Shown here in pieces: positions 29,431 to 43,432 of a DNA stretch of 64,000 nt (the stretch's first letter is position 1; the number at the start of each line of letters is the position of its first letter). This stretch comes from Candidatus Eiseniibacteriota bacterium (GTDB taxonomy: Bacteria > Eisenbacteria > RBG-16-71-46 > SZUA-252): NCBI GenBank assembly GCA_963724515.1, contig CAVRUU010000002.1:2942-66941 (forward strand), in the 5' to 3' direction. Both the position numbers and the translations under genes were made by a program. The notes below the pieces were generated by a model. The model did no database searches, was not told the origin of the DNA, and was given only the letters and a program-made list of their open reading frames with translations.

Positions 29431-30978
29431 TCACCGATCGATCTGGGCCTTTTGCAGGCGGCCGCTGTAGTCGATGTAGACCGATTTCCACTCGGTGAAG
29501 GCGTCGATGACCGTCGGTCCGCCCTCCCGATGGCCGTTTCCGGTCTCCTTCACGCCTCCGAACGGAAGTTGCACCTCCGCTCCGATGGTCGGGCCGTTGA
29601 CGTACGTGATCCCCGCCTCGATGTCCCGGATGGCGCGCATCGCGCGATTCACGTCCGTGGTGTAGATCGAGGAGCTGAGCCCGAAGGGGGTGCCGTTCAG
29701 GACCTGGATGGCTTCCTCCAGCGAGGAAACCGTGATCACGGAGAGCACGGGTCCGAAGATCTCCTCCTGCGCGATCCGCATCTTGGGCGTGACGCCGTCG
29801 AAGATCGTGGGCCTGTAGAACGCTCCCTCCGAAAGAGCGCCGTCTGTCGCGGGCGCCCCTCCGGTCACGAGCGTGGCGCCTTCGTGCTTGCCGATCTCTA
29901 CGTAGGAGTGAACGCGGTCGCGCTGGGCCCTGTTGACCAGGGGCCCCACTTCCGCCGCGGGATCGAGGCCGTCCCCCAGCTTGAGCTTGGAGGCACGGTC
30001 GGCCAGCCTCCGCACCAGCTCGTCGTGAACCTCCCTCATCACGATGAGCCGGCTCGTCGCGGTGCAGCGCTGTCCCGTGGTTCCGAACGCGCCCCAGAGG
30101 ACGCCTTCGAGCGCCAGATCGAGGTCGGCGTCCTCCATCACGATCTGCGCGTTCTTCCCGCCCAGCTCGAGGGAGACCCGCTTCAGCGTCTTGGCGGAGC
30201 GCTCCGCGATGACCTTGCCCACGTCGGAAGACCCCGTGAAGGAGATCATCTTCACGTCCGGATGCATGACGATCGGAGTCCCGACCGCGCTACCGCCGCC
30301 GTGCACGATGTTCACGACCCCTTCGGGGACCCCGGCCTCGACCAGGATCTCGATCAGGTGGTGCGCCGAGCCCGGCGTGTCGCTCGCGGGCTTCAGGACC
30401 ACCGTGTTTCCCGCCACCAGCGCCGGGAAGGTCTTCCACGAAGGGATCGCCATCGGGAAATTCCACGGCGTGATGAGCCCGCAGACGCCGAGCGGCTGCC
30501 GAATGGACATCGCGAACTTGTCCGGCAGCTCCGAGGGCACCGTCGCGCCGAAGAGCCTCCGGCCCTCGGCGGCGATGTAATAGGCCATGTCGATCGCTTC
30601 CTGGACGTCGCCCCGGGTCTCGGCGAGGACCTTCCCCATCTCGCGGGTCATGAGACGGGCCAGCTCTTCCTTCCGGTCGCGCAGGATCTCGGCGGCGCGG
30701 AAGATGAACTCAGCGCGGCGCGGGGCCGGGACGAGCCGCCAGGAAGAGAAGGCGCGCGCGGCGGCCTTGACGGCCTCGTCGACGTCCTCGGGGCCCGAGT
30801 CGGGGAACGTGCCGACGAGATCGGAGCCGCGGGCGGGGTTCCGATTCTCGAAGGTCTTGCCCGAGCGGGACGGAAGCCACTTCCCTCCGACCAGGTTGAG
30901 ATAATCGCGATGGGATGAATCCGAGGTGCGGGACCGGCCCTGAGAAAGCGTCGCCGGGGTTGCGGTGGGGGCGCTCAT
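29431..30978 (-). CDS. NAD(P)-dependent aldehyde dehydrogenase
   Basis: 515 aa. Motifs: ITPWNFP, FTGS, the catalytic Glu in LELGGKN and the Cys in GQRCTA. A GGAGG RBS lies 5 nt before the ATG. Confidence 0.95.
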   Translation of the reverse strand: MSAPTATPATLSQGRSRTSDSSHRDYLNLVGGKWLPSRSGKTFENRNPARGSDLVGTFPDSGPEDVDEAVKAAARAFSSWRLVPAPRRAEFIFRAAEILRDRKEELARLMTREMGKVLAETRGDVQEAIDMAYYIAAEGRRLFGATVPSELPDKFAMSIRQPLGVCGLITPWNFPMAIPSWKTFPALVAGNTVVLKPASDTPGSAHHLIEILVEAGVPEGVVNIVHGGGSAVGTPIVMHPDVKMISFTGSSDVGKVIAERSAKTLKRVSLELGGKNAQIVMEDADLDLALEGVLWGAFGTTGQRCTATSRLIVMREVHDELVRRLADRASKLKLGDGLDPAAEVGPLVNRAQRDRVHSYVEIGKHEGATLVTGGAPATDGALSEGAFYRPTIFDGVTPKMRIAQEEIFGPVLSVITVSSLEEAIQVLNGTPFGLSSSIYTTDVNRAMRAIRDIEAGITYVNGPTIGAEVQLPFGGVKETGNGHREGGPTVIDAFTEWKSVYIDYSGRLQKAQIDR

Positions 30979-31015: not shown

Positions 31016-31933
31016 CTAGCGAATGACGACGAAGTGTCCCTTGATGTGGCGACCTTGGGGCGATTCTACCTGATAAATGTAGATTCCCGAGACCACCTTT
31101 CGGCCGTCCGCGTTCTTCAAGTCCCACTCGAGGTCCCCGGTCACTCCGCCGGGATTGGCGTTCGGGTTCTGGACCAGGACCCGGACCAGTTCGGCGTTGG
31201 CGGTGAAGATCCTGACCGTCGAGCCGGCCGGGAGGTGGATGAAATGAACGCGGTTCTCGCCCGGAAATGGGTCCCACTCCGCGGAGCCCCGGAACGGGTT
31301 CGGCACGACGCCCACCCGCTCGAGATTGTCGGCGGGCGGCGTGGAGGGCTGGACCGTGACGATCTCGCTCGAGTCGATGGCGCTTTCCGTGAAGTCGTTA
31401 TTGGTCGCGTGAATGGTGTCGATCGAGGTCACCGCGTACATCGAGGTAAACCCCGCGAGGTTCGCCCGATCGGCGAATACCCAGCAGCTGTCGCAGTTGT
31501 CAACCGGCGCGCCGGGAGGGTAGTCGAGGAGGTATCTGCCGCCCGAGAAGTTGTTCCGGAACCCCTTGAAGAAGATCCCGGTGCCGTAGAAGACGAAGTG
31601 GCTCGGGTCGCATGGCTCCCCGGTCGAAATGCAGGCTTCGGTGACCGTGTTCCTGGACTTGTGCTGTCCGATCAGCTCGAAGGGTGTGGGGGTGATCCCC
31701 TTGATCGTGCGGCGGACCCGGTACCCGGTCCAGACGCTGTCCGTCTCCACCTGCGCACCGGTCCAGATGAGGATGACCGTGTTTCCACCCGTGAGGCGAA
31801 AGAAGGCCCGGACTGTGTTCGGGCTCCTCGGAGGCGGAATTTGGGCGCCCGCGGGAGAGGTGACCGAGAAAAGGGCGCCTGCGACCAGCAGTATTCGGAG
31901 CGCAACCGCTGAACTCTTTGCTGAGAAAGGCAT
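31016..31933 (-). CDS. Secreted protein with an FlgD-Ig/T9SS-like C-terminal domain
   Basis: Trimmed to the ATG at 31933, 305 aa, signal peptide MPFSAKSSAVALRILLVAGALFSVTSPAGAQ. CTD: VVPNPFRGSAEW...VRIFTANAELVRVL...LEWDLKNADGRKVVSGIYIYQVE. Confidence 0.8.
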   Translation of the reverse strand: MPFSAKSSAVALRILLVAGALFSVTSPAGAQIPPPRSPNTVRAFFRLTGGNTVILIWTGAQVETDSVWTGYRVRRTIKGITPTPFELIGQHKSRNTVTEACISTGEPCDPSHFVFYGTGIFFKGFRNNFSGGRYLLDYPPGAPVDNCDSCWVFADRANLAGFTSMYAVTSIDTIHATNNDFTESAIDSSEIVTVQPSTPPADNLERVGVVPNPFRGSAEWDPFPGENRVHFIHLPAGSTVRIFTANAELVRVLVQNPNANPGGVTGDLEWDLKNADGRKVVSGIYIYQVESPQGRHIKGHFVVIR

Positions 31934-32157
31934 TAACGATCCCTTCGTACGCAAGTCTGCCCCGGCGGCACGGTACCGATTCAAATTGGCTAATTGGGGG
32001 GGAAGAGCTATGTTCCAGCCCGTTGGGAAAGCCCGGCTGGGCGGACCCGGCGCCCGCCTCCCTGCCCAGGTCCCATCGCGGGCCAGACTAGGTCGGCGTA
32101 GAGCCCAGGTCAAGGCAATTTTAAACCACGCAAACGGCCGTAAGTTCCAAAAATCGC

Positions 32158-32187
32158 TTGACACTGCGGGCCTCGGTCCCGTATACT
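32158..32187 (+). promoter_or_regulatory. Near-consensus sigma70 promoter (TTGACA-18 nt-TATACT)
   Basis: TTGACA at 32158-32163 and TATACT at 32182-32187. It drives a ~165-nt, visibly AT-richer leader before the ATG at 32358. Confidence 0.55.
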
Positions 32188-32357
32188 CTATCAAGTAATT
32201 TGATGACGTTCACTCTTCCCATTGTGAGACCACACTTCAATTTAGCTCGGCCAGAATCACGATGACTAAGGAGGTGATCGGGCTCGGAGTATTGTGATCC
32301 TTATCCTCTTGAGGGTGTCTTCTCGCTTTTACCTGCGTTAGAGAGGAGATGAATGGA

Positions 32358-34325
32358 ATGAAGAGATTACTAAGCATTGTCGCGATCCTGTTCCTGGCGA
32401 CTTCGATGCTGCCAGCGAAGGGGCATGCCCTGCTCCGAGGCGCGTTCGACTTCATCAGTGGCACAGGGTCCGATCCTTTCGTCAGAGGGAAGTTCGGCCC
32501 AGTGCTCAGGGGCGGGATCGTGACCGGGACCGGAACCGCCGCGAGCCCGATAAGGGAGCGGTGGGTGACATTCGTCACGCTGAGCTCGGCCGTGGGGAGC
32601 GAGAGCGTCGGCGAGATCTACCTGCTCAGAAACCAGGACCAATCGTTCGCCAGGGGCAACCCCGCCGAGCCGTTGGAAGTGGACCTGACGGGCGCGGTTT
32701 CTTACATCGATCCGGCCTGGTCCAAAGACGGCAAGTGGCTCGCCTACGTTCAGACGGACAACAACGTCAGCGAGGCGAGCATCTACGTACAGCAGTTCGA
32801 TACCGGCACCGCGACCGGTGCTGTGCCCTTGGGAAGCCCGATCCTCATCGCCGATGGCAGCGGCGGCCTTCACCACCGGCACCCGGCGTTCAACGGCGCC
32901 GCCACGCAGATTGCATACGACTCCGACGCGAGCGGTCCCTCGATCGACCTTTGGACCGTGGGCGTCTCGCTGGACGCGACGGCGCATACGGGGACGGTCA
33001 ATGAGGCTTCGCGCGTCCGCCACCAGGTTGGGCTCGATGCCGATAACAACCTGCTCAACGCGAAGGCTGAATTCAAGCCTGCCTTCAGCCCCGACGGCAC
33101 GAAGATCGCGTACGTGACGAATCGGTTCGGATCGTTCCAGATTCAGATCGCGACCATCACGGCCGACGGCTCCGGCGAAACCAACACGGGCGCCGAAGTG
33201 AATCCCGCGCTCGTGACCCACGACAATCCGTCCTGGTCGCCCAACGGCCTCGAGCTCTACTACGACGCGCCGGCGAACGAAGACCCGGCGAATCCTCAGG
33301 ACATCTGGAGAATCACCCTCGCGACTGGACAGAAGTGCAACATCTTCATCGATCTCGCGGGTGACGTCGATCCGGACGTCTCTCAGTACACCAACGTCAC
33401 GCGTGACGGTCTGCCCTACAACTTCTTCACGTTCATCTCTCAGGCGAACGGGCTCGGAGTCCAGGTGTGGCTGGCCGAGGCCATTCAGAACTGCGTGCCG
33501 GCGTTGGCCGTGCAGGTCCAGGCCAACCCGAGTCAGATCGACATCGATCAGGGCACCGACACGGACCTGATCAAGACGACCATCTCCTTCCCGCTCTCCA
33601 TCAGGTCGCTTGGCTACGCGTGCCGGGCGTCCAACACCGGCGGTGAAGGAATCAGGACGCGGAGAACCATCATTCCCAGCCCGACGCTGATGGGACTGAG
33701 GATGCCAAGCACGCCCGACGACGATTCCGACTGCACCAGCATGGCATTCGATGCTTTTGGTGTCGCGGACTCGACGACCTGCTCCAGCATCATCCATGAC
33801 TTCGTCGGTGACGGCAGTTTTGGATGGTGGTCTTTCGTCGATGACACGACGGTCGTCACGCCGCCCACGACGAAGAACACCAAGCTGATCTTCAACTGGA
33901 ATCGGCGGACCATCCAGGCCCAAATCGTGGCTCTCGGACTGGTGAACAAGTACGTTCCCTTGACGTATCGCGCCTACACGAACACCACGGGCCGTCAGCT
34001 CCTGGGCTTCGCGTACGTCAAGCTGGCCAAGGCTAATTACCAGGCCGGCAGCATCGTGTTGGAGCAGAACTTCCCGAACCCGTTCAACCCCGTGACGAAC
34101 ATCAAGTTCGCGGTGGATAAACCGGGTAATGTCGAAGTCCGGGTCTTCAACGTGCGCGGCGAGCTGGTGCGCACCGTCGCCAACGGGTGGTACCCGCAGG
34201 GTCTGCACGCCGTCACTTGGGATGGCAAGACCAGGAGCGGTGGCCAGGCTCCCTCGGGTGTCTACTACATCCGGGCGAAGTCGATTGGTGGCAGCGACGT
34301 GATCAAGGCGGTACTCGCGAAGTAG
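32358..34325 (+). CDS. Secreted TolB-like (PD40 beta-propeller) protein with an FlgD-Ig/T9SS-like CTD
   Basis: I prefer the second ATG (32358) because the GAGGAG RBS is 9 nt upstream of it but abuts the first ATG (32349). Signal peptide [26 protein letters not shown]40-type repeats: [39 protein letters not shown]: [16 protein letters not shown]...[14 protein letters not shown]...[20 protein letters not shown]. Spot GC counts are 55-60%, against about 70% elsewhere. Confidence 0.88.
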
Positions 34326-34350
34326 TCCATTCGCGAATCGAAGCGGCAAG

Positions 34351-34388
34351 GGCCGCGGGGCGAAAGCCTCGCGGCCTTTTGCGTTTTC
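34351..34388 (+). terminator. Rho-independent terminator
   Basis: GGCCGCGGGGC-gaaa-GCCTCGCGGCC hairpin (one G-U pair) followed by TTTTGCGTTTTC, starting 26 nt after the stop. Confidence 0.75.
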
Positions 34389-34453
34389 TCCTGGCTCGAA
34401 ATGAGCGGGGTTCCCTGGGGGCTGCGCCAATCCGAGTCGGATCGCCAAGGTCC

Positions 34454-34639
34454 GACCTGTTCGAGGCGGGCGTGGTGGATCCGACCAAGGTGACGCGGTC
34501 GGCTCTCCAGAACGCCACGTCGGCTGCTTCCTTGCTGCTCCCGACGGAAGCGCTGGTCGTCGAGATCCCCGAGAAGAGGAAGGCGGCTCCCGCGGGCCCG
34601 CACGGCGGCGGCGGTGGCGGCGGCTACGAGGACATGTAT
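34454..34639 (+). pseudogene. groEL: Orphan 3'-terminal fragment of chaperonin groEL (last ~62 codons only)
   Basis: Translates to [62 protein letters not shown]. This matches the near-invariant GroEL C-terminus (..[32 protein letters not shown]..) and its Gly-rich tail. There is no GroEL-like sequence upstream of 34454. A hairpin plus CTTTT at 34653-34685 looks like the original terminator. Confidence 0.8.
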
Positions 34640-34754
34640 TTGTTGGCGAACCCCCCGAGCGGGTCAACCCTGCGGCGGGGCTTTTCGCAGTGCGGCGTCA
34701 GGATGTTGCGCCTGCCCCGGCATGGGTGGGCGCAGCGTTAGGCTCGAGCGCCCG

Positions 34755-35213
34755 CTACCGCTTCTTCTTCAGAACGGCAATCTGCCCCGCGTGGTAGAGG
34801 TCGTGCTGGATGACGCCGTGCAGGAGCTGGTAGCGGGTCGAGTACTTTCCGGTGGGCGATGCGTCCAGCTGCTCATCCCGGACGCCGGCGGCGGTCTCGC
34901 GGAGCTTCATGTGCCCCGCGCGGAGCGCGGACAGCGCGCGTTCCCAGGCCGCCTTGGTCTTGTCCTTGACGGGGGGCCAGTTCTCCTTCGACGTGATATC
35001 CGGGCTCTCCCCGAGCAGCCGCCGCCGTACGACGTCTTCCCACGTCGTGATGTGGAGAACCAGCTCCCAGATGCTGTGAGCCCCCGGAATCGGCTTCTTG
35101 AGCGCGCGCTGGTAGGTCACGCCCGCGAGCACTTCCAGAACGGAGGGCCCGTGCCACGCCTCTCCTTCGAAAGCCTTCGTGAGCTGATCCAGGATCCGAT
35201 CGCGCTCGGACAT
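34755..35213 (-). CDS. DinB-family protein
   Basis: 152 aa. It has the DinB_2-type four-helix pattern with conserved His residues (AWHGPSVLEVL, SIWELVLHITTWEDV, LLHGVIQHDLYHAGQI). Its ATG overlaps the upstream stop by 1 nt (TGATG). Confidence 0.85.
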   Translation of the reverse strand: MSERDRILDQLTKAFEGEAWHGPSVLEVLAGVTYQRALKKPIPGAHSIWELVLHITTWEDVVRRRLLGESPDITSKENWPPVKDKTKAAWERALSALRAGHMKLRETAAGVRDEQLDASPTGKYSTRYQLLHGVIQHDLYHAGQIAVLKKKR

Positions 35214-37534
35214 CAGGGCAGCGTCGGCGACGCGTTCACGTACTCGAACGATCTCCTCATGATGTTGACGGCGTCCGCGTCCTTCAGGAAATAGAGCGGG
35301 AACGTGAAGATCGCGTAGCGGCCAAGCGCGGCGCTTGGCACGTAGCCCTGGTTCGGGCTGGCTCCGAGGTCATGCGACTGGCCGAGGAGCCCGCACGCAA
35401 GCCCCTCACGGGGTGATGGTCCGCCGTCCTGGTCGGCGCCAACTCTCACACCATGGTACGTGTAGAGCACCTGGATGATCGGGTCCGCCGGGTTCTCGAA
35501 ATTGAAATTCTGGATGGGCCGGCATCCGAAGTTCTGGGCCATTACCCAGCCCTCGATACCCGCCAATCCGGGGAAGGTCCGCTGGTCCCGGGAATTGAGA
35601 TCGGCCACAAAGGGATAGTGGTTGGTGTTCCACTTGAACGACACCTGGCCGGGCCCTGGGGTAGCCGGATACTGGACTCCGGTCCCCGTGTTCCCCGTAT
35701 CCACCCGCGCCGTGTCGAACCCTAAGCCGATCGCGGTCGCGGTGGGTATCCCCCGCACGAAGTCGAAGGCCCCCGCCGCTCTTCGGCCCTCGCGGCTCTG
35801 GACCGACCGGTCGATGCCCATGTACATGCGTGGGAAGATCGTCTGGTTGAACTGCGGCGTGCCGGGCGGATAGGTAGTGCAAATCCCCCCGGGAACCCCG
35901 TCGTACGTCTGGTTGCCGGGGAGCCCCGTCGTCGCTTGAGCGACGCTCCAACCGGTCAGGATCAGGGTGCCCCCCGCCCGCAGGTAGCCTTGAAGCTCGC
36001 TGTAGTCCCCTCCCGCGACCGACCGGAACAGGCCCGTCGCGAGACTTCCCCCGTTCTCGGCGTCCGTGGTCCACACCACGGTCGTGTACTCCGCGAGGTT
36101 CCTGGCCTCCGGCTGCTTTCGCCTGTCGATGCCTCCGGCGGCCTCGGCGATCGTGTCCCACTCCGTGTACGGGATCCCGTATAGATCGAAGATGGTGATC
36201 AGAGGACCCTGACCCGTGTCATTCCGTTCCGTCCACCACCGGGACTCCAGATCGTCCGTTGGACGACTCCCGTTTCCAAGGGTGGGATCCGAGTCGTCCA
36301 CGAACAGGATCTTCCGCGGCGCGCCCGGATCCTTGAACGACGGATGCACGATGAGAAGCGGCACGGTGATGTTCGTCGTGAGCCCGCCGTCGTCCACCAC
36401 CCGCACATAGAGGAAATGATTTCCCGGAGGAAGCTGACTGGGCTGGTACGTGGCGCCGGTCGATCGAATGTCGATCCCCGGGAACGAGCTGGTATCGTCC
36501 ATCGCATACGTGAACCCGACGATCTCTCCACCGTAGGACTCCGCGTTCGCCGTCCAGGAGAAGCTCACGGTCTCCCCCTCGAAGATCTGGAGTTGCTTCC
36601 TCGCGTAGTCGTCGGGGCCGATGGCGGGATCCAGGCACCGGTTCAGGATACTGCTGCAGACGTTGAGCACAGGTCCCGCGTTTCGACTCGTGACCGTGAA
36701 ATGCCGGATATTGCGGACAAAGACCAGGTCCTTCTCCGTGGCTCCCGCGATGTCCACCGCGCGCTCCGCGAACACGTATTCGCCTGGGGTCACGTTCCGG
36801 AAGCGGGTCTTGAGCGCGCGGATGCCCTGCCATTTCCAGTCGCCATTGGGCGCCGGCAAGCTGTCGCTGACGGCCGCGCGGATCATGTCCACGTACACGT
36901 TCGGACTGAAATGGGGCAGCGGTGGATGCGTGGGAGGGGTGGCGAGGTCCGCGGTCCCGTCGACGCGCAGAAGCAGATACTGGAACGAATCGACCGGCAC
37001 CCTTCCGCCCGTTTCTCCGCCGTCGGGGTCGAGTCCGGACCACTCATACGTGAAATTGGGGCCGACGACCGGATTGAACGCCGCGGGACCCTTCTCGATC
37101 CTCGAGTTCGGCGGAAGCGTTTTCGCGGAGAAGGCCCTCGAGGCGGGCGACCTGTCGATCCTGCCGTCGTTGTCCTCGGCCGCGACCTTGAAGACGTGAA
37201 CCTTCAGCTCCCGGACGGGGTCCACCAGGAAAAGGAGGATCGTGTCCTTGGATACCGTCGTCCTCCACTCGTTTGACGGACGCAGGGTATCGTCGTCGAC
37301 CGCGTAGTGGAACCGCATGACCTCGCCGTCGTCATCGTAGCCGCTCCAGTAGAAGTGAACGCGGAACGTGGTCGTGTCGTACTGGACGGGCGCGTAGGTG
37401 AGCTCGGTCTCGGGATAGAGCTTATCGGGCGTTGGAGGGACGACGGGGCCCTTGGAGCAGCTCGTGCCGTTGTAGATCGCCACGAGCGCGAGGAAGATCA
37501 ACCCGAAGTGCCGGATACGAAATGGAGGCTTCAA
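35213..37534 (-). CDS. Large lipoprotein of unknown function (repeated W-x-G-x-D-x-DG beta-sandwich modules plus a C-terminal alpha/beta domain)
   Basis: The TTG start at 37534 has an AAGGAG RBS 8 nt upstream, giving 773 aa. Lipobox: LVAIYNGTS-C. Repeated motifs: FRVHFYWSGYDDDGEVMRFHY, FTYEWSGLDPDGGE, VSFSWTANAESYGGEIVGFTY. The C-terminal segment is KILFVDDSDPTLG...YTTVVWTTDAENG...GGTLILTGW. Confidence 0.85.
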   Translation of the reverse strand: MKPPFRIRHFGLIFLALVAIYNGTSCSKGPVVPPTPDKLYPETELTYAPVQYDTTTFRVHFYWSGYDDDGEVMRFHYAVDDDTLRPSNEWRTTVSKDTILLFLVDPVRELKVHVFKVAAEDNDGRIDRSPASRAFSAKTLPPNSRIEKGPAAFNPVVGPNFTYEWSGLDPDGGETGGRVPVDSFQYLLLRVDGTADLATPPTHPPLPHFSPNVYVDMIRAAVSDSLPAPNGDWKWQGIRALKTRFRNVTPGEYVFAERAVDIAGATEKDLVFVRNIRHFTVTSRNAGPVLNVCSSILNRCLDPAIGPDDYARKQLQIFEGETVSFSWTANAESYGGEIVGFTYAMDDTSSFPGIDIRSTGATYQPSQLPPGNHFLYVRVVDDGGLTTNITVPLLIVHPSFKDPGAPRKILFVDDSDPTLGNGSRPTDDLESRWWTERNDTGQGPLITIFDLYGIPYTEWDTIAEAAGGIDRRKQPEARNLAEYTTVVWTTDAENGGSLATGLFRSVAGGDYSELQGYLRAGGTLILTGWSVAQATTGLPGNQTYDGVPGGICTTYPPGTPQFNQTIFPRMYMGIDRSVQSREGRRAAGAFDFVRGIPTATAIGLGFDTARVDTGNTGTGVQYPATPGPGQVSFKWNTNHYPFVADLNSRDQRTFPGLAGIEGWVMAQNFGCRPIQNFNFENPADPIIQVLYTYHGVRVGADQDGGPSPREGLACGLLGQSHDLGASPNQGYVPSAALGRYAIFTFPLYFLKDADAVNIMRRSFEYVNASPTLP

Positions 37535-37547
37535 TGCACTCGCTCCT

Positions 37548-39149
37548 TCACGGTCGGCGTGTCGGTCGGCTTGTGGGGGACACGAGATCAAAATAGAAGA
37601 TTTTCGAGCTGTCGGACACGAACTCGGCCCGGTCGATGGCCCAGACCTCCACCGAGTGGGGGTTGCCCGGCGCCAGGTTGGCAAAGGTAGAGTCGGGAAT
37701 GAAAACGCTCGTCGGGGGATCGCCCGTGAACACGACGTTGCGGGTTTGAGTCGCGTCGAGCTTGATTCGAGCGTTCTTCACCACGCCATCCTCCACATCG
37801 TGGGCGTACCAGGTGATGAGCCTGCCTGGTTCGAACGGGAAAACGGGTCCGACACTCTCTTCCACGCTCAACGAATCGATGAACGGCCGGTAGTTGCAAT
37901 TGAACCGAAATGCCGCCTTCGTCCCGTCTCCGCGGTTCGAGCAATCCCGTGACGCCGCGAGCATGTACATGTTGAAGCCGGCATCGAGCGAATCCAGCAC
38001 GAGATTGCTGAATCCCCTCTGCCGGAGGGAATTGGGCTCGTTCGTCTTGAAGGGGATGGGCGGGCTCCCGGGTATCTCGTTGAGGAATCCGATGACGTAA
38101 GGCTCACCGAGGTTGCGGGTGCCTCCCCGCAGCTCGAGGGAGTACCCGTTGATGCAATTGGACTCGGGCAGCGGATTGTTCACCCTCCCGGGTCTCCCCA
38201 GATCCTCGCCATCCCAGGCGAACCAGACCGTGGACCTGTAGGGCACGGTGTCCCCCTCGCCGAACGGGACGACCACCGATTCGTCCACGAGGTCCCCGCC
38301 CAGGAAGGGTGGATGGTAGAAGCCGTTGGGTCCGCCCTTCGGCGTGAACCAAGTCTCGGGATCGTGGTTCACGACGAAGAAGAGGTTCGTCTTCCCGACC
38401 GCCAGCGCGTTGTCCACGGCGGTGATGGTGAGATTGTAGACCCCGCTCGCGAGGCCCACGGAGTTGACGTCGGTCGTGTCGTTGAATACGGCGAACGTGT
38501 CGGCCATCAACGGGCTCGAGACCGTCCCCACGTCGAACTTGTAACGGATCACGACGCCGTCGGAGTCGTCACCGGTCCAGGAGACCCTGAAGGGCTGGCC
38601 GTCCGACAGGGTGTCGATCACGTAGCCAAGCCGTGCGCTATCGCTGGGTAGGGTGCCGGTGAACTGCACCCGGGGCCGGATCGTTTCAGCCTTGAACGTC
38701 GTCCGATTGAAGATCGCGGAGCTCGGATCATGTTTGCCCAGGTTGTCCACCGCCCTGATGTAGAACGTGTGATACCGGGTGAATCCGATGATGGTGGACC
38801 CGCCGGTGATGTCAGTGGAATCGTTCACGGTCAGGTCGAAGATGCTGTCCGTCTTCGTCGTGAAGTGGAAGTGCCCCGCGCTCGAATCGTCGAACGCCCA
38901 CAGGTAGCCGGCCACGTATCCATCCGGATCCTCCCCGCGCCAGTAGAGGTGAACGCGGTAGGAATAGCTTACCCCGGTAGCCGTCGGGTGGGCGACGGTG
39001 CTGTCGAGGGGGGCCGCGACCAGGAACGTGCGCGGCGGCCGGTTCCGGTCGACGCGAAGCGGGTCCTTGGCGCAGCCGGCGAGCATCGCGAGCGCGGCCA
39101 CGGGCACGGCAATGCATGCCAGAGACAACGCGGTTCTCCGCAATGGCAT
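37548..39149 (-). CDS. Lipoprotein of unknown function, paralogous at its N-terminus to 35213..37534
   Basis: Trimmed to the ATG at 39149 (GGAGAG RBS), 533 aa. Signal and lipobox: MPLRRTALSLACIAVPVAALAMLAG-C. Motifs: YRVHLYWRGEDPDGYVAGYLW, FRVSWTGDDSDGVVIRYKF, VWFAWDGEDLG, ITWYAHDVEDGVV. Confidence 0.85.
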   Translation of the reverse strand: MPLRRTALSLACIAVPVAALAMLAGCAKDPLRVDRNRPPRTFLVAAPLDSTVAHPTATGVSYSYRVHLYWRGEDPDGYVAGYLWAFDDSSAGHFHFTTKTDSIFDLTVNDSTDITGGSTIIGFTRYHTFYIRAVDNLGKHDPSSAIFNRTTFKAETIRPRVQFTGTLPSDSARLGYVIDTLSDGQPFRVSWTGDDSDGVVIRYKFDVGTVSSPLMADTFAVFNDTTDVNSVGLASGVYNLTITAVDNALAVGKTNLFFVVNHDPETWFTPKGGPNGFYHPPFLGGDLVDESVVVPFGEGDTVPYRSTVWFAWDGEDLGRPGRVNNPLPESNCINGYSLELRGGTRNLGEPYVIGFLNEIPGSPPIPFKTNEPNSLRQRGFSNLVLDSLDAGFNMYMLAASRDCSNRGDGTKAAFRFNCNYRPFIDSLSVEESVGPVFPFEPGRLITWYAHDVEDGVVKNARIKLDATQTRNVVFTGDPPTSVFIPDSTFANLAPGNPHSVEVWAIDRAEFVSDSSKIFYFDLVSPTSRPTRRP

Positions 39150-39217
39150 TCTGCTCTCTCCGAGGAGATGGTGACGCCGGCAGGTCATCTCGGGCACGGG
39201 GTCTTGGGGACCCGCTG

Positions 39218-39246
39218 AAACTAGCAACCCCGCCAGGGGCTGTCAA
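39218..39246 (-). promoter_or_regulatory. Candidate sigma70 promoter (TTGACA-17 nt-TAGTTT) for the lipoprotein operon
   Basis: On the minus strand: a perfect -35 TTGACA (39246-39241), a 17-nt spacer, then TAGTTT (39223-39218). It sits ~65 nt upstream of the ATG at 39149. Confidence 0.45.
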
Positions 39247-39254
39247 CGAATTTT

Positions 39255-39300
39255 GTAGGGAAACGAGAAGGGCCGCCGGGGTTCCGGCGGCCCTTGTCTC
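39255..39300 (-). terminator. Rho-independent terminator after the 1209-aa gene
   Basis: A 10-bp all-GC stem (GGGCCGCCGG / CCGGCGGCCC) with a 4-nt loop at 39270-39293 and flanking A-T extension. On the minus strand it is followed by CTTCTCGTTTCCC. Confidence 0.65.
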
Positions 39301-39324
39301 GTTGAAACTCTACGGCTGGATCGA

Positions 39325-42300
39325 CTACCGAACGATAGCGATCTTGAGACCGTTCAGGCTCTCGCTGCCATCGCCGTACTTCACCTTCACGAAGTACACG
39401 CCGCTGGCCAGGTTTCTGCCATCGCTCGACTTGCCGTTCCAGTGAACCTCGTTCACACCCTGCGTGGCGTTCTTCGTAATCGTCTGCACGAGACGGCCAG
39501 CGACGTCGAAGATGCGCACGTCAGCACGGCCGTTCTTCGCCGAAAGGAAGCGAATGACCGTGCTCGGGTTGAACGGGTTCGGGAAGCTTCTGTCCAGTCT
39601 GTTGGCAACCGGCGGAGCTCCCGCGACATCCACCGCCGACAGGACCTTGGTCGCATCCTGGAGCGGATAGAGCGGACCGTACGTGCCCGTGCTGAAGCCC
39701 GTAAGGGTAGCCCAGTTGCCGTACTTGTTGGCATCCGTCGGGCACGGCCAGCAGGAAGCCGTATCCGCTGTCGTCCTCGGTCCACGGCAGCTCGTCAGGA
39801 ACTTGTAGAGCACCTGAGCGCGCGTGTCGATCAGGTTCTGGCCACCCTGGCGAATGAACTGGATCGAGAAGCCGTAGCCCAAAGCCTTGTTCCGGTCGTG
39901 ATCGTTCAACACGTCACGCTCGGTCGAATAGGAGACGCCCGCGACGTTCGTCACAGAGGCGAACGTCGGGTAGGTCGCGGCATTCGAAGCATCGCCGCTT
40001 CCAACCTTGGTCAGTGCGTCAAACCGGTTCGGCGCCGGGCAGGTCCCATCTACGAAGTAGGTGTACCCACCGGTGAGCGCGGGACCCGACGCAGGATTCG
40101 CGAACAGATCCGTGACGAGCGGGAGCTGGACCGACGTGTTGCCGTTCCAGGCATTCGGAGCCGCTGCGACACCAAACACGGAACTCGACAGTAGATTTTC
40201 GTTCGGATGAGGCACGCCGCTCACCGTCAACAGTGAGCTGAAGAAATCGTCGCCCGAACCGAAGATGCACCGGTCTCCGCCGTCGGTACCCGGGGTGGGA
40301 GCTTCCCACCACAGCTTGATGAGCTTCGCGTCGGACTCTTCATCGACAACCGTCGTCGAGGTGTGCGAAGACTCGATCATGAGGCGGTACCAGATGGCCA
40401 GCGAGTCCTTGATGCTGTACTCGTCCATATTCGGGAAGTAGTTGCTCAACCGGCCGGCGCGGGTTCCTGCGAACTCGTGCCCACCGATGTGACCGCCCTC
40501 TTCCAGACCCTGCAGCGTACGGTAGCGGTCGGAGCGGACACCCAGCGCGCGCAGTGCCTGCACGGTCGCGTGGCTTCCGAAATTCCACCGCGTGTAGCTG
40601 CCGTCCAGATCGAGGAGCGGCGTATTGGTTCTGCCTGCCAGTTGGGTTCCGCCGGCGCCAGCTGCGTACACGCCCGGCAGAACGTTGAACTGGATGATAT
40701 CCGGGGCAACGATCGAGCTGCCCGGAAGCGTCGGAAGATCCTCAACCTCGCGGGCCAAACCGTCCGTCGAGAATTGATAAGAGGTTCCGCCGTTGATATC
40801 GACACCCTTCCAGTAGTACTGGACCCGGGTTCCGCGAGGCAGGAAGGCCAACTGGCTGTAAAGCGTCTTCCCGTTCACGCTGAAGCCACCCGGAAGTGAC
40901 GTGCCGGCCTTGTCGCGCGGCGGCCAGTTCACCCGGTATTCACTGTCGATCAGAGTGGTGTCGCCGGCGTTGATCCCGACCGCGTTCGCGTCGAGCTCGC
41001 TCGAGTCGAACGGGCTCCAGGTCTTGCTCGCCGGATCGAATATGCGGTAGATGATGCGCGGCTTGTCAAAGGCCGCCACGAAGTTCGGATTCGTGTGCGC
41101 GATGGTCAGACCAAAGTTCACACTCTTGTCGAACCCGTGGTGCCAGTTGACGCCCTTACCGTTCTTCCGGAGTCCCGTCGCGACGGCCAAAGTGATCGAG
41201 TCGCCGAGCGGGCTGTTGAAGTTGTCATGCACGGCGCCGTTAGCCGCGCCGGTGTCGCTGCCTCGCAGGCCGGGCCAGCACGTACCCGCTGTCACCGTGC
41301 CCGCGTTGCAACCGACGCCTGCCAACGTCCCGTCCACGAACATCGACTGAGCGACCGCGCCGACGAACACGCCGAAGATCGGCGCCGGCACGCCCGTCAC
41401 GATCTCGAGACGGAAGTTGTCGTACAGAATCCCGTAGATGACGTCGCCGCAGTTCAGATGGTCGGCGGCGAAGAACGGGATACACTGCAAGATGTAGCGG
41501 ATCTGGATCGAGTCGGCCTGGGTCGCCGCGGCCAAGTCGCCGAACTGCGTGCCCCAGGACTGCCTCGCGCCCGTGTTCACACCGCCACCCGCGTCCGTGT
41601 CGTTCCAGTTACCCCAGCTTCCGAGGGCGAAGATCCGGTACTCGGCCTGCTGGACGTATCCCTGGTTTCTCGGCAAGTCGAAATAATCATCCCACAACGC
41701 CAGCACGGAAGCCGTTCCGGCCGGAATCGGGAACGAACAGGTCACCACCGAGTTGTACTGGTTCGGCACCGTGTGGAAGTTCGCCGCGTTTCCTCCCTCG
41801 AAAATGAGGTCGGAGGAGGCGCTCTTCGGCACGCAAACGTCAGGAGTCGGCAGGAGGTTTCCGGAGACGAGCTGCCAGAGACTTCCTACTCCGGGCGCCA
41901 CGCGGGCAGAAACGATCGGAGCTCCTGCCGTACCGACGAGAACCTTGCCCCCAAACGCGTCGGTGAAGGCCGTGGCCGCTTGGTCGGTGTAGATCGCACC
42001 GTTGTCGCTGCTGGCAACGTTGTCGATCATCGCACCATGACCTTCGGGCCAGAGACCGTCTTCAGACGAATAGAGGCAGTCGGCCTTGAACACTATGTAG
42101 AGTGCCCTGTCGGCCGCCAAGAACGAGAACGAGGCGCCGGTCACCGTGACCGGTCCCGTACCCGGGTTGCTGGAGATGTTGAACGGCGCCCCAGCAACTT
42201 GTCCGGTGCCGGTCGCACCCACCGTGGCCGGGGTGATGCTGCCAGTCCACTGAATCAGATATGCCCCAGCTCCGATGATCCCGTCCAACACGCTTCTGGA

Positions 42301-42954
42301 GTTTCCGATCGGGTCGGCACCGCCGCCGCCGCCGCCGATCACCCAGACGTAGTCGTAGTTGAACTCGGCGCTGAAGTTGTAGTTGAGGGTCAAATTGTAG
42401 TTGCCGCCGTGAGCACCTGTGTCGATGTAGAGAATCTGGTAGGTGATGTTCGGATATCCGTACTTGTTCACCCAGTTGCCGTCGTACTTACCGCACCAGA
42501 TCATCCTGGTCCCGTTTAGCGCGGGAGGGCAGAGGTTCGTGCCGGTTCCTGTGGTGTTGCAAGTCGCGTTGTCCGACACATGCCACAGAGCCTCGCTCAG
42601 CGAATTGTCGCCGACGGTATACGGTCCGACTGTTCCGGCCGTGTAGGTGTCGAGCGAATCCGCCTGCGGAGAGGTCCTGGGGACCCACGTACTGGCCGCA
42701 CGTTCAGCGCACGCGCCAGGATAGAGGAACCAGGTGGTCGTCGCCTGGGACTGCTTGATCAGGTTGCCGCTCAGCGTCCCCTGATAGTTGCCGCCTGTCC
42801 GGCTCTGCCAGACTCCCGCGTGATTCTCCAGCGAGATCGGCTCCGAAGCCTTGGGCGGATCCTTCAGCGGGTCATTCGAAACCGCGGCCAGAGTGGGCAT
42901 CGCCCACAGGCCGAGTGCCACGAGACCCAACATGGCAAATAGGGTTTTCCGCAT
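39325..42954 (-). CDS. Very large secreted protein with an FlgD-Ig/T9SS-like CTD (paralogue of 2939..5785)
   Basis: I prefer the ATG at 42954 (AAGGAGG RBS 8 nt upstream) over the GTG at 42960, giving 1209 aa. Signal peptide MRKTLFAMLGLVALGLWAMPTLAA. Motifs shared with the 948-aa protein: WH(V/I)..., (I/W)WCG, FSAEFNYDY / FNAEPAYDF, YSSEDGLWPEGHGAMIDNV / YSSADGLYDGDGWIIDNV. CTD: SFPNPFNPSTVIRFLS...VRIFDVAGRLVQTI...WNGKSSDGRNLASGVYFVKV. Confidence 0.9.
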   Translation of the reverse strand: MRKTLFAMLGLVALGLWAMPTLAAVSNDPLKDPPKASEPISLENHAGVWQSRTGGNYQGTLSGNLIKQSQATTTWFLYPGACAERAASTWVPRTSPQADSLDTYTAGTVGPYTVGDNSLSEALWHVSDNATCNTTGTGTNLCPPALNGTRMIWCGKYDGNWVNKYGYPNITYQILYIDTGAHGGNYNLTLNYNFSAEFNYDYVWVIGGGGGGADPIGNSRSVLDGIIGAGAYLIQWTGSITPATVGATGTGQVAGAPFNISSNPGTGPVTVTGASFSFLAADRALYIVFKADCLYSSEDGLWPEGHGAMIDNVASSDNGAIYTDQAATAFTDAFGGKVLVGTAGAPIVSARVAPGVGSLWQLVSGNLLPTPDVCVPKSASSDLIFEGGNAANFHTVPNQYNSVVTCSFPIPAGTASVLALWDDYFDLPRNQGYVQQAEYRIFALGSWGNWNDTDAGGGVNTGARQSWGTQFGDLAAATQADSIQIRYILQCIPFFAADHLNCGDVIYGILYDNFRLEIVTGVPAPIFGVFVGAVAQSMFVDGTLAGVGCNAGTVTAGTCWPGLRGSDTGAANGAVHDNFNSPLGDSITLAVATGLRKNGKGVNWHHGFDKSVNFGLTIAHTNPNFVAAFDKPRIIYRIFDPASKTWSPFDSSELDANAVGINAGDTTLIDSEYRVNWPPRDKAGTSLPGGFSVNGKTLYSQLAFLPRGTRVQYYWKGVDINGGTSYQFSTDGLAREVEDLPTLPGSSIVAPDIIQFNVLPGVYAAGAGGTQLAGRTNTPLLDLDGSYTRWNFGSHATVQALRALGVRSDRYRTLQGLEEGGHIGGHEFAGTRAGRLSNYFPNMDEYSIKDSLAIWYRLMIESSHTSTTVVDEESDAKLIKLWWEAPTPGTDGGDRCIFGSGDDFFSSLLTVSGVPHPNENLLSSSVFGVAAAPNAWNGNTSVQLPLVTDLFANPASGPALTGGYTYFVDGTCPAPNRFDALTKVGSGDASNAATYPTFASVTNVAGVSYSTERDVLNDHDRNKALGYGFSIQFIRQGGQNLIDTRAQVLYKFLTSCRGPRTTADTASCWPCPTDANKYGNWATLTGFSTGTYGPLYPLQDATKVLSAVDVAGAPPVANRLDRSFPNPFNPSTVIRFLSAKNGRADVRIFDVAGRLVQTITKNATQGVNEVHWNGKSSDGRNLASGVYFVKVKYGDGSESLNGLKIAIVR

Positions 42955-42981
42955 TTTCACATCCTCCTTAGCGTTTCCTAA

Positions 42982-43125
42982 CTAGGAGTCCAATATCGGG
43001 AGGACAGTAGCTGGAACTTCAAAACACGGGATTCGGTACAACGAGTTGAGTCTGGAGTTGAACACTGAGGGCACCCACTCGACGGGACAGTTCTCGAGGG
43101 TTGCTGGGCGTCCTCCTTCCAACAT
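42982..43125 (-). CDS. Possible 47-aa upstream small ORF in the leader of the 1209-aa gene
   Basis: Not in the track because it is under 60 aa. AAAGGAGGT lies 7 nt before the ATG at 43125. Translation: MLEGGRPATLENCPVEWVPSVFNSRLNSLYRIPCFEVPATVLPILDS. The stop at 42982-42984 is 27 nt before the main ATG. No homology is recognisable, so it may simply be untranslated leader. Confidence 0.25.
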   Translation of the reverse strand: MLEGGRPATLENCPVEWVPSVFNSRLNSLYRIPCFEVPATVLPILDS

Positions 43126-43161
43126 TCACCTACCTCCTTTCCTCGTGTATTTGTATTGGGT

Positions 43162-43185
43162 GTTCTGATTTACGTTCTGATTTAC
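43162..43185. repeat. Perfect tandem duplication of a 12-nt unit (GTTCTGATTTAC x2)
   Basis: Read directly from the sequence: 43162-43173 equals 43174-43185. It lies in a 60-nt line with ~40% GC, ~35 nt upstream (minus-strand sense) of the small ORF's RBS. Confidence 0.9.
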
Positions 43186-43370
43186 AAGGCTGAAACGAGA
43201 ATCTGCTGTATGCGTCGGAGTCTCTCTCACCCCCTTTGTAGCGTCGTTCTCTCCAAGCGAGATTGGCTGTAACGTATTTTAGGGCATAAACAAAGAACGC
43301 CGCCCCGTCAGGCAGATGTCAGCTTCGCATTCGCTGTTGTTTCAGTTGCTTGGGACGGTAGCGGCTGTGT

Positions 43371-43392
43371 GGAAGCAAGTTATTTTGCTTCC
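43371..43392 (-). promoter_or_regulatory. 5'-proximal stem-loop of the predicted leader transcript
   Basis: Perfect 8-bp inverted repeat GGAAGCAA-6 nt-TTGCTTCC, placed a few nt downstream of the predicted transcription start. No T-run follows on either strand, so I do not call it a terminator. Confidence 0.5.
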
Positions 43393-43404
43393 ATGTACTC
43401 GGCT

Positions 43405-43432
43405 AGTATACCAAAAAAGCCGCTAATGTCAA
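43405..43432 (-). promoter_or_regulatory. Near-consensus sigma70 promoter (TTGACA-16 nt-TATACT) for the 1209-aa gene
   Basis: On the minus strand: TTGACA (43432-43427, overlapping the glyS stop codon), a 16-nt spacer, then TATACT (43410-43405). This implies a ~440-nt leader. Confidence 0.6.

Follow-up and report, generated by a model that had tools for sequence, protein, structure and literature searches.

Which neighbour belongs with a pair of large lipoproteins that an uncultured bacterium encodes side by side, and what might the pair do at the cell envelope? The question is raised by a locus on contig CAVRUU010000002.1 of Candidatus Eiseniibacteriota bacterium (1.96-Mb genome, 69% complete), of which a stretch of 64,000 nucleotides (nt), hereafter the window, was analysed, and where a preliminary description made from the sequence alone had seen an operon of two paralogous lipoproteins coupled to a DinB-family gene. 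Eisenbacteria, which are common in soil and have not been cultured, encode many proteins with the sorting tail of the type IX secretion system (T9SS). The lipoprotein genes, here P1 (lipoprotein 1, P0001, 533 amino acids, aa) and P2 (lipoprotein 2, P0002, 773 aa), are kept in company not with DinB but with the gene upstream of them, which encodes a large T9SS cargo, P0004 (1211 aa), and this makes the pair a concrete candidate for the surface holding or assembly of secreted proteins in Eisenbacteria. By sequence reading, the cargo, P1, P2 and DinB genes all lie on the minus strand, in the following arrangement.

39325..42960, minus strand: P0004, secreted, 1211 aa, with a C-terminal sorting domain (CTD) of T9SS type A, from matches to TIGR04183 and FlgD_ig
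39261..39293, minus strand: behind P0004, the GC-rich hairpin GGGCCGCCGG-AACC-CCGGCGGCCC, which has a T-rich tail, read from the sequence
39218..39246, minus strand: promoter candidate TTGACA-17-TAGTTT (-35 box at 39246..39241, -10 box at 39223..39218)
39150..39175, minus strand: palindromic TCTCCTCGGAGA just upstream of the P1 start codon, from the intergenic alignment
37548..39149, minus strand: P1, a 533-aa lipoprotein with four predicted beta-sandwich domains, from translation and an AlphaFold2 (AF2) model
35213..37534, minus strand: P2, a 773-aa lipoprotein read from a TTG start, from translation
37457..37534, minus strand: TTG start, signal peptide and lipobox Cys26 of P2, by sequence reading, with AGGAG 8 nt upstream of the start
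36338..37417, minus strand: P2 residues 40-399, three predicted FN3/Ig-like beta-sandwich domains, from AF2, hhalign and Foldseek
35216..36337, minus strand: P2 residues 400-773, a lineage-specific alpha/beta domain, from the order of secondary structure in AF2
34755..35213, minus strand: DinB_2-family gene of 152 aa, without a signal peptide, from Pfam DinB_2

Full-length orthologues of P2 occur in 32 of 40 genomes of the family, and elsewhere in the phylum P2-like proteins, 30-35% identical, align along the Ig part and the first stretch of the alpha/beta domain. Of 29 further family loci, 27 have a P1 homologue immediately before the P2 homologue and the other two begin at a contig end. In at least 17 genomes, spread over all four genera of the family, a comparison of the match coordinates of P2 and P0004 puts a P0004 orthologue directly upstream of the pair and on one contig and strand with it. 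Three long metagenomic contigs (L001-L003) show the same cargo-P1-P2 order. The true conserved partner of the lipoproteins is this gene for the 1211-aa T9SS cargo, which the preliminary description had missed. The arrangement extends beyond the family: among 25 loci compared around P2-like matches in other families, the P1-then-P2 order recurs at 15, of which 13 have a CTD protein of 1100-1830 aa (lengths of open reading frames, ORFs, from stop to stop) upstream on the same strand and two are cut by contig ends. In 14 of the 15, the gene behind P2 is CTD-tailed as well. The followers that were scanned encode 350-620 aa and carry a WD40-type propeller, Big_5 or no known domain. The corresponding part of the window lies beyond DinB.

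32349..34325, plus strand: convergent PD40-propeller CTD gene with PD40 and FlgD_ig domains, from a domain scan
31016..32194, minus strand: small CTD-tailed protein of 392 aa, from a CTD hidden Markov model (HMM) and tblastn
29431..30978: aldehyde dehydrogenase, after the small CTD gene

The 392-aa protein matches our own CTD HMM at E=2.9e-9 and no Pfam family at E<0.01, and its tail (residues about 240-392) resembles, in tblastn, the small CTD genes of the 15 distant loci, to which it also corresponds in position; in this family it is separated from P2 by DinB and the convergent PD40-CTD gene. Six distant loci have an aldehyde dehydrogenase behind the small CTD gene, the order also seen in the window, and glyS, the upstream neighbour that serves as a control for synteny, is kept within the family only. 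The order shared across families points to an ancestral block of large CTD gene, P1, P2, small CTD gene and aldehyde dehydrogenase, so that the region appears to be the local copy of an old, phylum-wide envelope gene block of Eisenbacteria. Judged from these gene orders, the PD40-propeller CTD gene is an insertion after P2 in this family, as is DinB in part of the genus.

The upstream protein carries the marks of a T9SS substrate. P0004 matches TIGR04183 with 47.6 bits (cut-off 23) over residues 1126-1201 and FlgD_ig with 40.2 bits, and the genome encodes a genuine PorU sortase (NF033707, 492 bits against a cut-off of 420; G000:C6:169219-172569, minus strand), with PorU matches above the cut-off in 12 of the 16 family genomes searched. 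The presence of PorU implies that the CTD proteins are real T9SS cargo, and P0004 itself classifies, on its domain matches, as a type A cargo. The body of the cargo has no Pfam or PDB family, only a weak signal for a MAM-like N-terminal jelly roll (InhA-like MAM) among 20 members scanned, and against PDB sequences the CTD alone was matched. P0004 is homologous over almost its full length to a 948-aa CTD protein of the window (2939..5785, plus strand; hhalign E=8.8e-63 over 829 columns). It was also considered as the T9SS sortase and rejected in that role, as its CTD alone fits the PorU model and the real PorU lies elsewhere in the genome.

Cargo and lipoproteins adjoin closely, and appear nevertheless to be transcribed apart. 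P0004 stops with TAG at 39325, and in an alignment of the intergenic region of this locus with those of the three metagenomic relatives (four loci, proteins 50-70% identical) the 10-bp hairpin stem behind that stop (39293..39270), which a pattern scan did not flag, is kept in all four; it is probably a terminator that divides the cargo transcript from the lipoprotein transcript. The promoter candidate of the preliminary description is present, with a -35 box that, together with its flanks (CGTTGACAGCCC), is invariant in the four loci. Its -10 box is weak: TAGTTT agrees with TATAAT at 3 of 6 positions only, for which reason the candidate went unlisted in a consensus scan, and the aligned loci differ there (TAGTTT, TAGCTT, TTGTCC). 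Taken together, the conserved hairpin and the invariant -35 box indicate that the cargo gene and the lipoprotein pair are separate, closely adjoining transcription units, and the sequence supports P1 and P2 as a two-lipoprotein unit with a promoter candidate of its own. The palindrome TCTCCTCGGAGA upstream of P1, likewise invariant in this locus and L001-L003, includes the Shine-Dalgarno motif GGAG and could self-pair. The coordinates and junctions given earlier for P1, P2 and DinB proved right on re-reading, down to the single base that the P2 TGA and the DinB ATG have in common (TGATG, 35215..35211). P1 starts with ATG at 39149 and stops with TGA at 37550..37548, and P2 starts with TTG at 37534 (N-terminus of the product LKPPFRIRHFGLIFLALVAIYNGTSC). 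The gap of 13 nt between the two stands as described, whereas the ribosome-binding site, which had been placed inside the upstream gene, is an AGGAG directly after the P1 stop.

Bacterial lipoproteins are recognised by a charged n-region, a hydrophobic h-region and a lipobox, [LVI][ASTVI][GAS]C, for signal peptidase II, and by these features both P1 and P2 are predicted lipoproteins. The N-terminus of P1 reads MPLRRTALSLACIAVPVAALAMLAGC and contains the canonical lipobox LAGC, whose Cys26 is invariant in 45 homologues and begins a strongly conserved tether, CAKDPLxVDRNRPPRTF. That of P2 includes LIFLALVAIYNGTSC (GTSC, Cys26), with an atypical Gly at -3; the homologue consensus is GCSK, and Cys26 is at least 90% conserved among 45 homologues. 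Further conserved cysteines (C552 and C671, invariant in P2; C418, at least 90% conserved in P1) fit an exported protein. Searches returned 242 homologues for P2 and 195 for P1, all unnamed or 'hypothetical' and, where labelled, mostly from metagenome-assembled genomes of Candidatus Eisenbacteria, and this genome has one copy of each gene. Some close homologues (52-67% identity) bear the labels Dormibacteraeota, Bacteroidota or Planctomycetaceae, which more likely reflects an artefact of binning or labelling than true spread.

The paralogy of the two lipoproteins, first noticed from the sequence alone, holds in proper alignment. BLASTP aligns P1 with P2 at 27% identity over 194 residues (E=6e-9), and profile-profile comparison with 45 homologues each (hhalign) gives a probability of 99.4% and E=4.7e-21 over 295 columns, a stretch from the signal peptide through domain two or three; on these alignments P1 and P2 are true paralogues over about 300 N-terminal residues. 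The shared W-x-G-x-D-x-DG motif occurs in its strict form twice per protein (W70 and W191 in P1, W63 and W165 in P2), a number of copies (two or more) that was reached in 0 of 20,000 shuffles, and it is present in only four ORFs of the whole genome. The earlier count of three or four modules per protein is reached if degenerate copies (W312 and W447 in P1, W327 in P2) are included; strict copies number two each.

Neither lipoprotein belongs to a Pfam or NCBIfam family above threshold, and neither has a match among PDB sequences in single-protein or profile searches. The fn3 family (PF00041) is approached by P1 at 12.5 bits against a cut-off of 25 and not matched by P2, and a distant P1-like homologue (L082) exceeds that cut-off with 30.5 bits. 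The AF2 model of P1 (predicted local distance difference test, pLDDT, 76.7) consists of four all-beta domains (about residues 40-157, 158-263, 264-421 and 422-525), the first of them poorly modelled; that of P2 (pLDDT 84.5, residues 40-399 mostly above 85) has beta-sandwiches at about residues 40-140, 141-285 and 286-399, the first two paralogous to those of P1, followed by an alpha/beta domain at 400-773. Foldseek against the PDB and the BFVD viral models returned solely tandem FN3/Ig arrays, with probability 1.0 and low TM-scores (0.1-0.3), among them RTX-adhesin repeats, SiiE, the Deinococcus HPI S-layer protein, fibronectin and decorations of phage fibres. The models thus depict the repeats as FN3/Ig-like beta-sandwiches in tandem, four in P1 and three in P2. 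The preliminary description had called the module PKD/Ig-like and had placed it in no named family, and the AlphaFold, Foldseek and HMM searches that it proposed assign neither lipoprotein to a well-characterised one. That label is a fair one, FN3-like being the closest term. Its Ig half is borne out, and its PKD half finds no match above threshold: Pfam matches of P1 and P2 at E<=1 include no PKD family, PKD-containing PDB chains appear only as sub-threshold phmmer matches (E=0.07-0.9), and the motif is W-x-G-x-D-x-DG as against the PKD signature WDFGDG.

The C-terminal half of P2 defines a new, narrowly distributed alpha/beta domain: an exhaustive phmmer search with residues 400-773 through 1.84 billion representative proteins gave only 24 clusters at 50% identity. 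Its distant members include P0265, a 628-aa lipoprotein with the architecture of P2, and P0266, where the domain stands in front of a FlgD_ig/T9SS CTD, a fusion which implies that it works outside the cytoplasm, alongside T9SS export. Conserved across members is a core of L-x-VDD, WD, R..P....L....TV.W..D, Y.RAGG.L.L.G, F.R..MG, VD.G, KW, PG and GFP.YYL, and close relatives end in an invariant SPTLP. Across 45 orthologues the invariant polar residues are D413, D414, E430, D460, R472, D491, R519, R569, E680, H694, S707, H721 and R739, joined in close relatives by E710; a segment of some 60 residues (about 660-720) with invariant His, Ser and Glu is missing from P0265 and P0266. In the AF2 model, conserved acidic and aromatic residues (VDD, WD, W..D) lie at the C-terminal ends of strands 1-3, and in flavodoxin-like folds the C-terminal edge of the parallel sheet is the usual ligand or metal site. 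The order of strands and helices and the acidic residues at these strand ends fit a three-layer, flavodoxin-like fold. With ThuA (PF06283), the GldG-type ABC_transp_aux family and DUF4159 the domain shares the beta-alpha-beta order, an acidic strand end and a 'GG-x-L-x-L-x-G' before the fourth strand; it differs from them in giving no HMM match at E<=10, in lacking a catalytic Cys and in its size, some 370 residues that include a large lineage-specific insertion. The 'ThuA/flavodoxin-like' label is a putative one, drawn from the modelled strand-helix order. The domain profile has 0 matches among PDB sequences at E<=10, 13 isolated domain sequences find no related family in Pfam at E<=10, and no ThuA-like or class I glutamine amidotransferase-like profile is matched in Pfam or the PDB at E<=10. 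The domain is not visible among the top 50 Foldseek matches of the whole model, which are filled by Ig/FN3 arrays, and ThuA was found in 1 of 61 genomes of the phylum.

The preliminary description had also seen this alpha/beta segment recur in other proteins of the window, namely the 948-aa CTD protein and, loosely, a VWA protein, and had proposed that the 1211-aa cargo be aligned with them; the recurrence did not survive alignment. The domain HMM, with or without the distant members, matches no ORF of the 1.96-Mb genome beyond P2 itself. Compared by hhalign with single sequences, the domain profile gives E=0.25 (P0004), 0.11 (948-aa protein) and 0.19 (VWA protein); with 24 sequences of the P0004 family it gives E=0.23, with 25 of the 948-aa family E=0.042, and with a merged sub-region of the 948-aa and 1211-aa families E=0.019 at a probability of 2.4%, the best value obtained. 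Alignments with the 948-aa family do fall into the register proposed earlier (ILFVDD/ILFVN, TEWDT/DTWEV, TTVVW/STIIW), so that a common fold is possible; homology is not demonstrated. The 7139-aa P0261, which surfaced as a match, was rejected, its score being the sum of eleven repeat matches of 4-6 bits each.

How these parts might act together can be sketched as follows. P0004 would be made from a unit of its own, with promoter, leader and terminator, and exported by the T9SS, while P1 and P2, made from a separate unit, would stand as lipid-anchored FN3/Ig stalks with acidic W-x-G-x-D-x-DG loops. As a non-enzymatic scaffold in the outer membrane they could hold, organise or help to assemble the neighbouring T9SS cargo on the surface, and a putative ligand or metal site would be formed by the invariant Asp and Trp residues where the strands of the P2 sheet have their C-terminal ends. 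To the core of this proposal, namely a structural role of P1 and P2 in the outer membrane as scaffold or anchor of the secreted proteins encoded nearby, together with binding of a metal or an envelope component in the acidic pocket of the alpha/beta domain, we give about an even chance. A bolder form, which we consider rather unlikely, would make the pair a phylum-specific, cargo-dedicated platform for the anchoring or assembly of the large and small CTD proteins through protein contacts, instead of or besides attachment to anionic lipopolysaccharide, with the P2 domain as an undescribed flavodoxin-like domain outside the cytoplasm, whose invariant acidic cluster would bind a metal or an envelope glycan. 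In Porphyromonas, T9SS cargo is attached to anionic lipopolysaccharide.

Some Bacteroidota T9SS cargos have dedicated outer-membrane partners (SprF with SprB, PorP-like proteins with type B CTD cargo, PorU-PorV, PorZ-PorQ), and these known partners are beta-barrel outer-membrane proteins. P1 and P2 may be comparable to them in role, not in fold. As in those systems, the gene of a T9SS-tailed protein is kept beside genes of putative partners, and PorU is present; unlike them, the putative partners here are FN3/Ig-like lipoproteins, one with a new alpha/beta domain, and the cargo CTD is of type A, FlgD_ig-like. Neither P1 nor P2 matches the PorP/SprF family in Pfam or NCBIfam, and their models are not barrels. 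Full-text literature searches found no description of the lipoprotein-pair module. If the proposal is true, the idea of cargo-specific T9SS partners would extend past Bacteroidota and past beta-barrels.

Several observations weigh against a cargo scaffold. The GTSC lipobox of P2 is atypical, and location in the outer membrane or at the surface is not readable from sequence in this phylum. Three further paralogues of P0004 in this genome and one of the 948-aa protein come without a lipoprotein pair, and 10 of the 25 distant P2-like genes have no neighbouring P1. Since synteny reaches as far as a housekeeping-type aldehyde dehydrogenase, adjacency may in part reflect an inherited block and not function, and the many polar residues of the P2 domain that are invariant in close relatives (H694, S707, E710, H721 and others) would also fit an enzyme. 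P1 and P2 could instead be free-standing surface adhesins or polymer-binding lipoproteins of the SusE/SusF kind, independent of the cargo, and their gene order an inherited 'surface proteome' block, an alternative that we judge rather unlikely. Lipid-anchored tandem beta-sandwiches do resemble surface glycan-binding proteins (SGBPs), and Bacteroides ovatus SGBP-B (6e57, E=4.8e-5) figures in the Foldseek list of P1; the reach of synteny beyond the module, the distant P2-like genes without P1 and the tandem amplification of P2 in some genera, a pattern typical of diversifying binding proteins, all favour it. Yet the neighbourhood consists of glyS, CTD proteins and aldehyde dehydrogenase and has neither SusC/SusD-type genes nor others for uptake; no sequence relation to SGBPs is detectable, and SGBPs lack the alpha/beta domain of P2; the Foldseek matches are generic Ig/FN3 arrays at the low TM-scores given above; and the order large CTD-P1-P2 persists at about 30% protein identity in families where the upstream glyS is not kept. 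That the P2 alpha/beta domain is instead an extracytoplasmic enzyme, perhaps a hydrolase or amidase whose substrate is the cargo, the lipid or glycan that anchors the cargo, or an external polymer, with the stalk serving only to position it, seems to us quite improbable. The density of polar invariance across the 45 orthologues and the acidic and aromatic residues at the ends of strands 1-3 speak for it; against it stand the lack of any Pfam, NCBIfam or PDB sequence match even with a profile, the loss of the His, Ser and Glu candidates with segment 660-720 in P0265 and P0266, where the structural core motifs alone persist, and the absence of a conserved Cys at the nucleophile position of glutamine amidotransferases (motif LILTGW).

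Least credible of all, and very improbable in our estimate, is functional coupling of the DinB enzyme to P1 and P2, for example through a thiol- or metal-dependent modification. The TGATG overlap occurs here and in the closest metagenomic relative, L001, and DinB follows P2 in this genome and at five other loci of the same genus. It is absent, however, from two of the seven same-genus loci with a downstream flank (present at 5 of 7), from every locus of the other three genera (about 20 loci, none with DinB) and from the other families, and where it is present its spacing from P2 varies from overlap to about 80 nt. In the closed genome G055 about 1.4 Mb separate the DinB orthologue (47% identical) from the lipoproteins, G042 and G017 carry DinB paralogues alone, at 28-30% identity, and a second DinB_2 copy of this genome, 70% identical, lies on another contig among unrelated neighbours (G000:C9:97432-98106, minus strand). 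The protein itself is an ordinary DinB_2 member (PF12867, 57.4 bits against a cut-off of 24.8, residues 25-145 of 152) without a signal peptide; all that sets it apart from the superfamily is its place behind exported lipoproteins, and this place is not conserved. The coupling proposed in the preliminary description does not extend beyond part of one genus and is largely refuted by the description's own test of conserved adjacency, and such non-conserved adjacency marks the position of DinB as a local accident at a variable 3' junction, which removes a false lead. In the scaffold proposal DinB_2 would be the gene of a cytoplasmic enzyme that landed at the 3' junction of the unit in one genus and is co-transcribed by accident of position.

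Both flanks of the locus have peculiarities of their own.

34187..34741, plus strand: ORF ending in a GroEL C-terminus, with no GroEL body upstream
43429..45548, minus strand: glyS, split in two overlapping ORFs (44070..45548 and 43429..44169), both matching tRNA_synt_2f

The first of these ORFs, which ends in a typical GroEL C-terminus, sits between DinB and the PD40-CTD gene, and as an orphan groEL fragment it marks the junction downstream of P2 as rearranged. That both overlapping glyS ORFs match tRNA_synt_2f suggests a frameshift or an assembly error; the relatives L001-L003 carry an intact glyS of 705-706 aa at the same position. The G+C content of the surface-protein block (32000..44000) is 0.60-0.63, below that of its surroundings (0.67-0.73), and as the block is nonetheless anciently syntenic in the phylum, this points to effects of composition or expression and not to recent transfer.

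Beta-propeller proteins with T9SS tails recur beside P2, as co-directional WD40-type genes in three distant families (L086, L099, L105) and as the convergent PD40/Tricorn-type gene in this one. The superfamily of the 948-aa and 1211-aa CTD proteins has at least six members in this genome, the further ones being as follows.

G000:C3:644463-647897
G000:C3:269168-271807
G000:C3:772820-775396
G000:C3:177728-180424

In other genera of the family P1 stays single and P2 has been duplicated or triplicated in tandem, with copies at these places.

G019:C9:4321-11193: three P2 copies in a row
G148:C19: tandem P2 copies
G055:C1:572094-576678: tandem P2 copies
L002 8001-12613: tandem P2 copies

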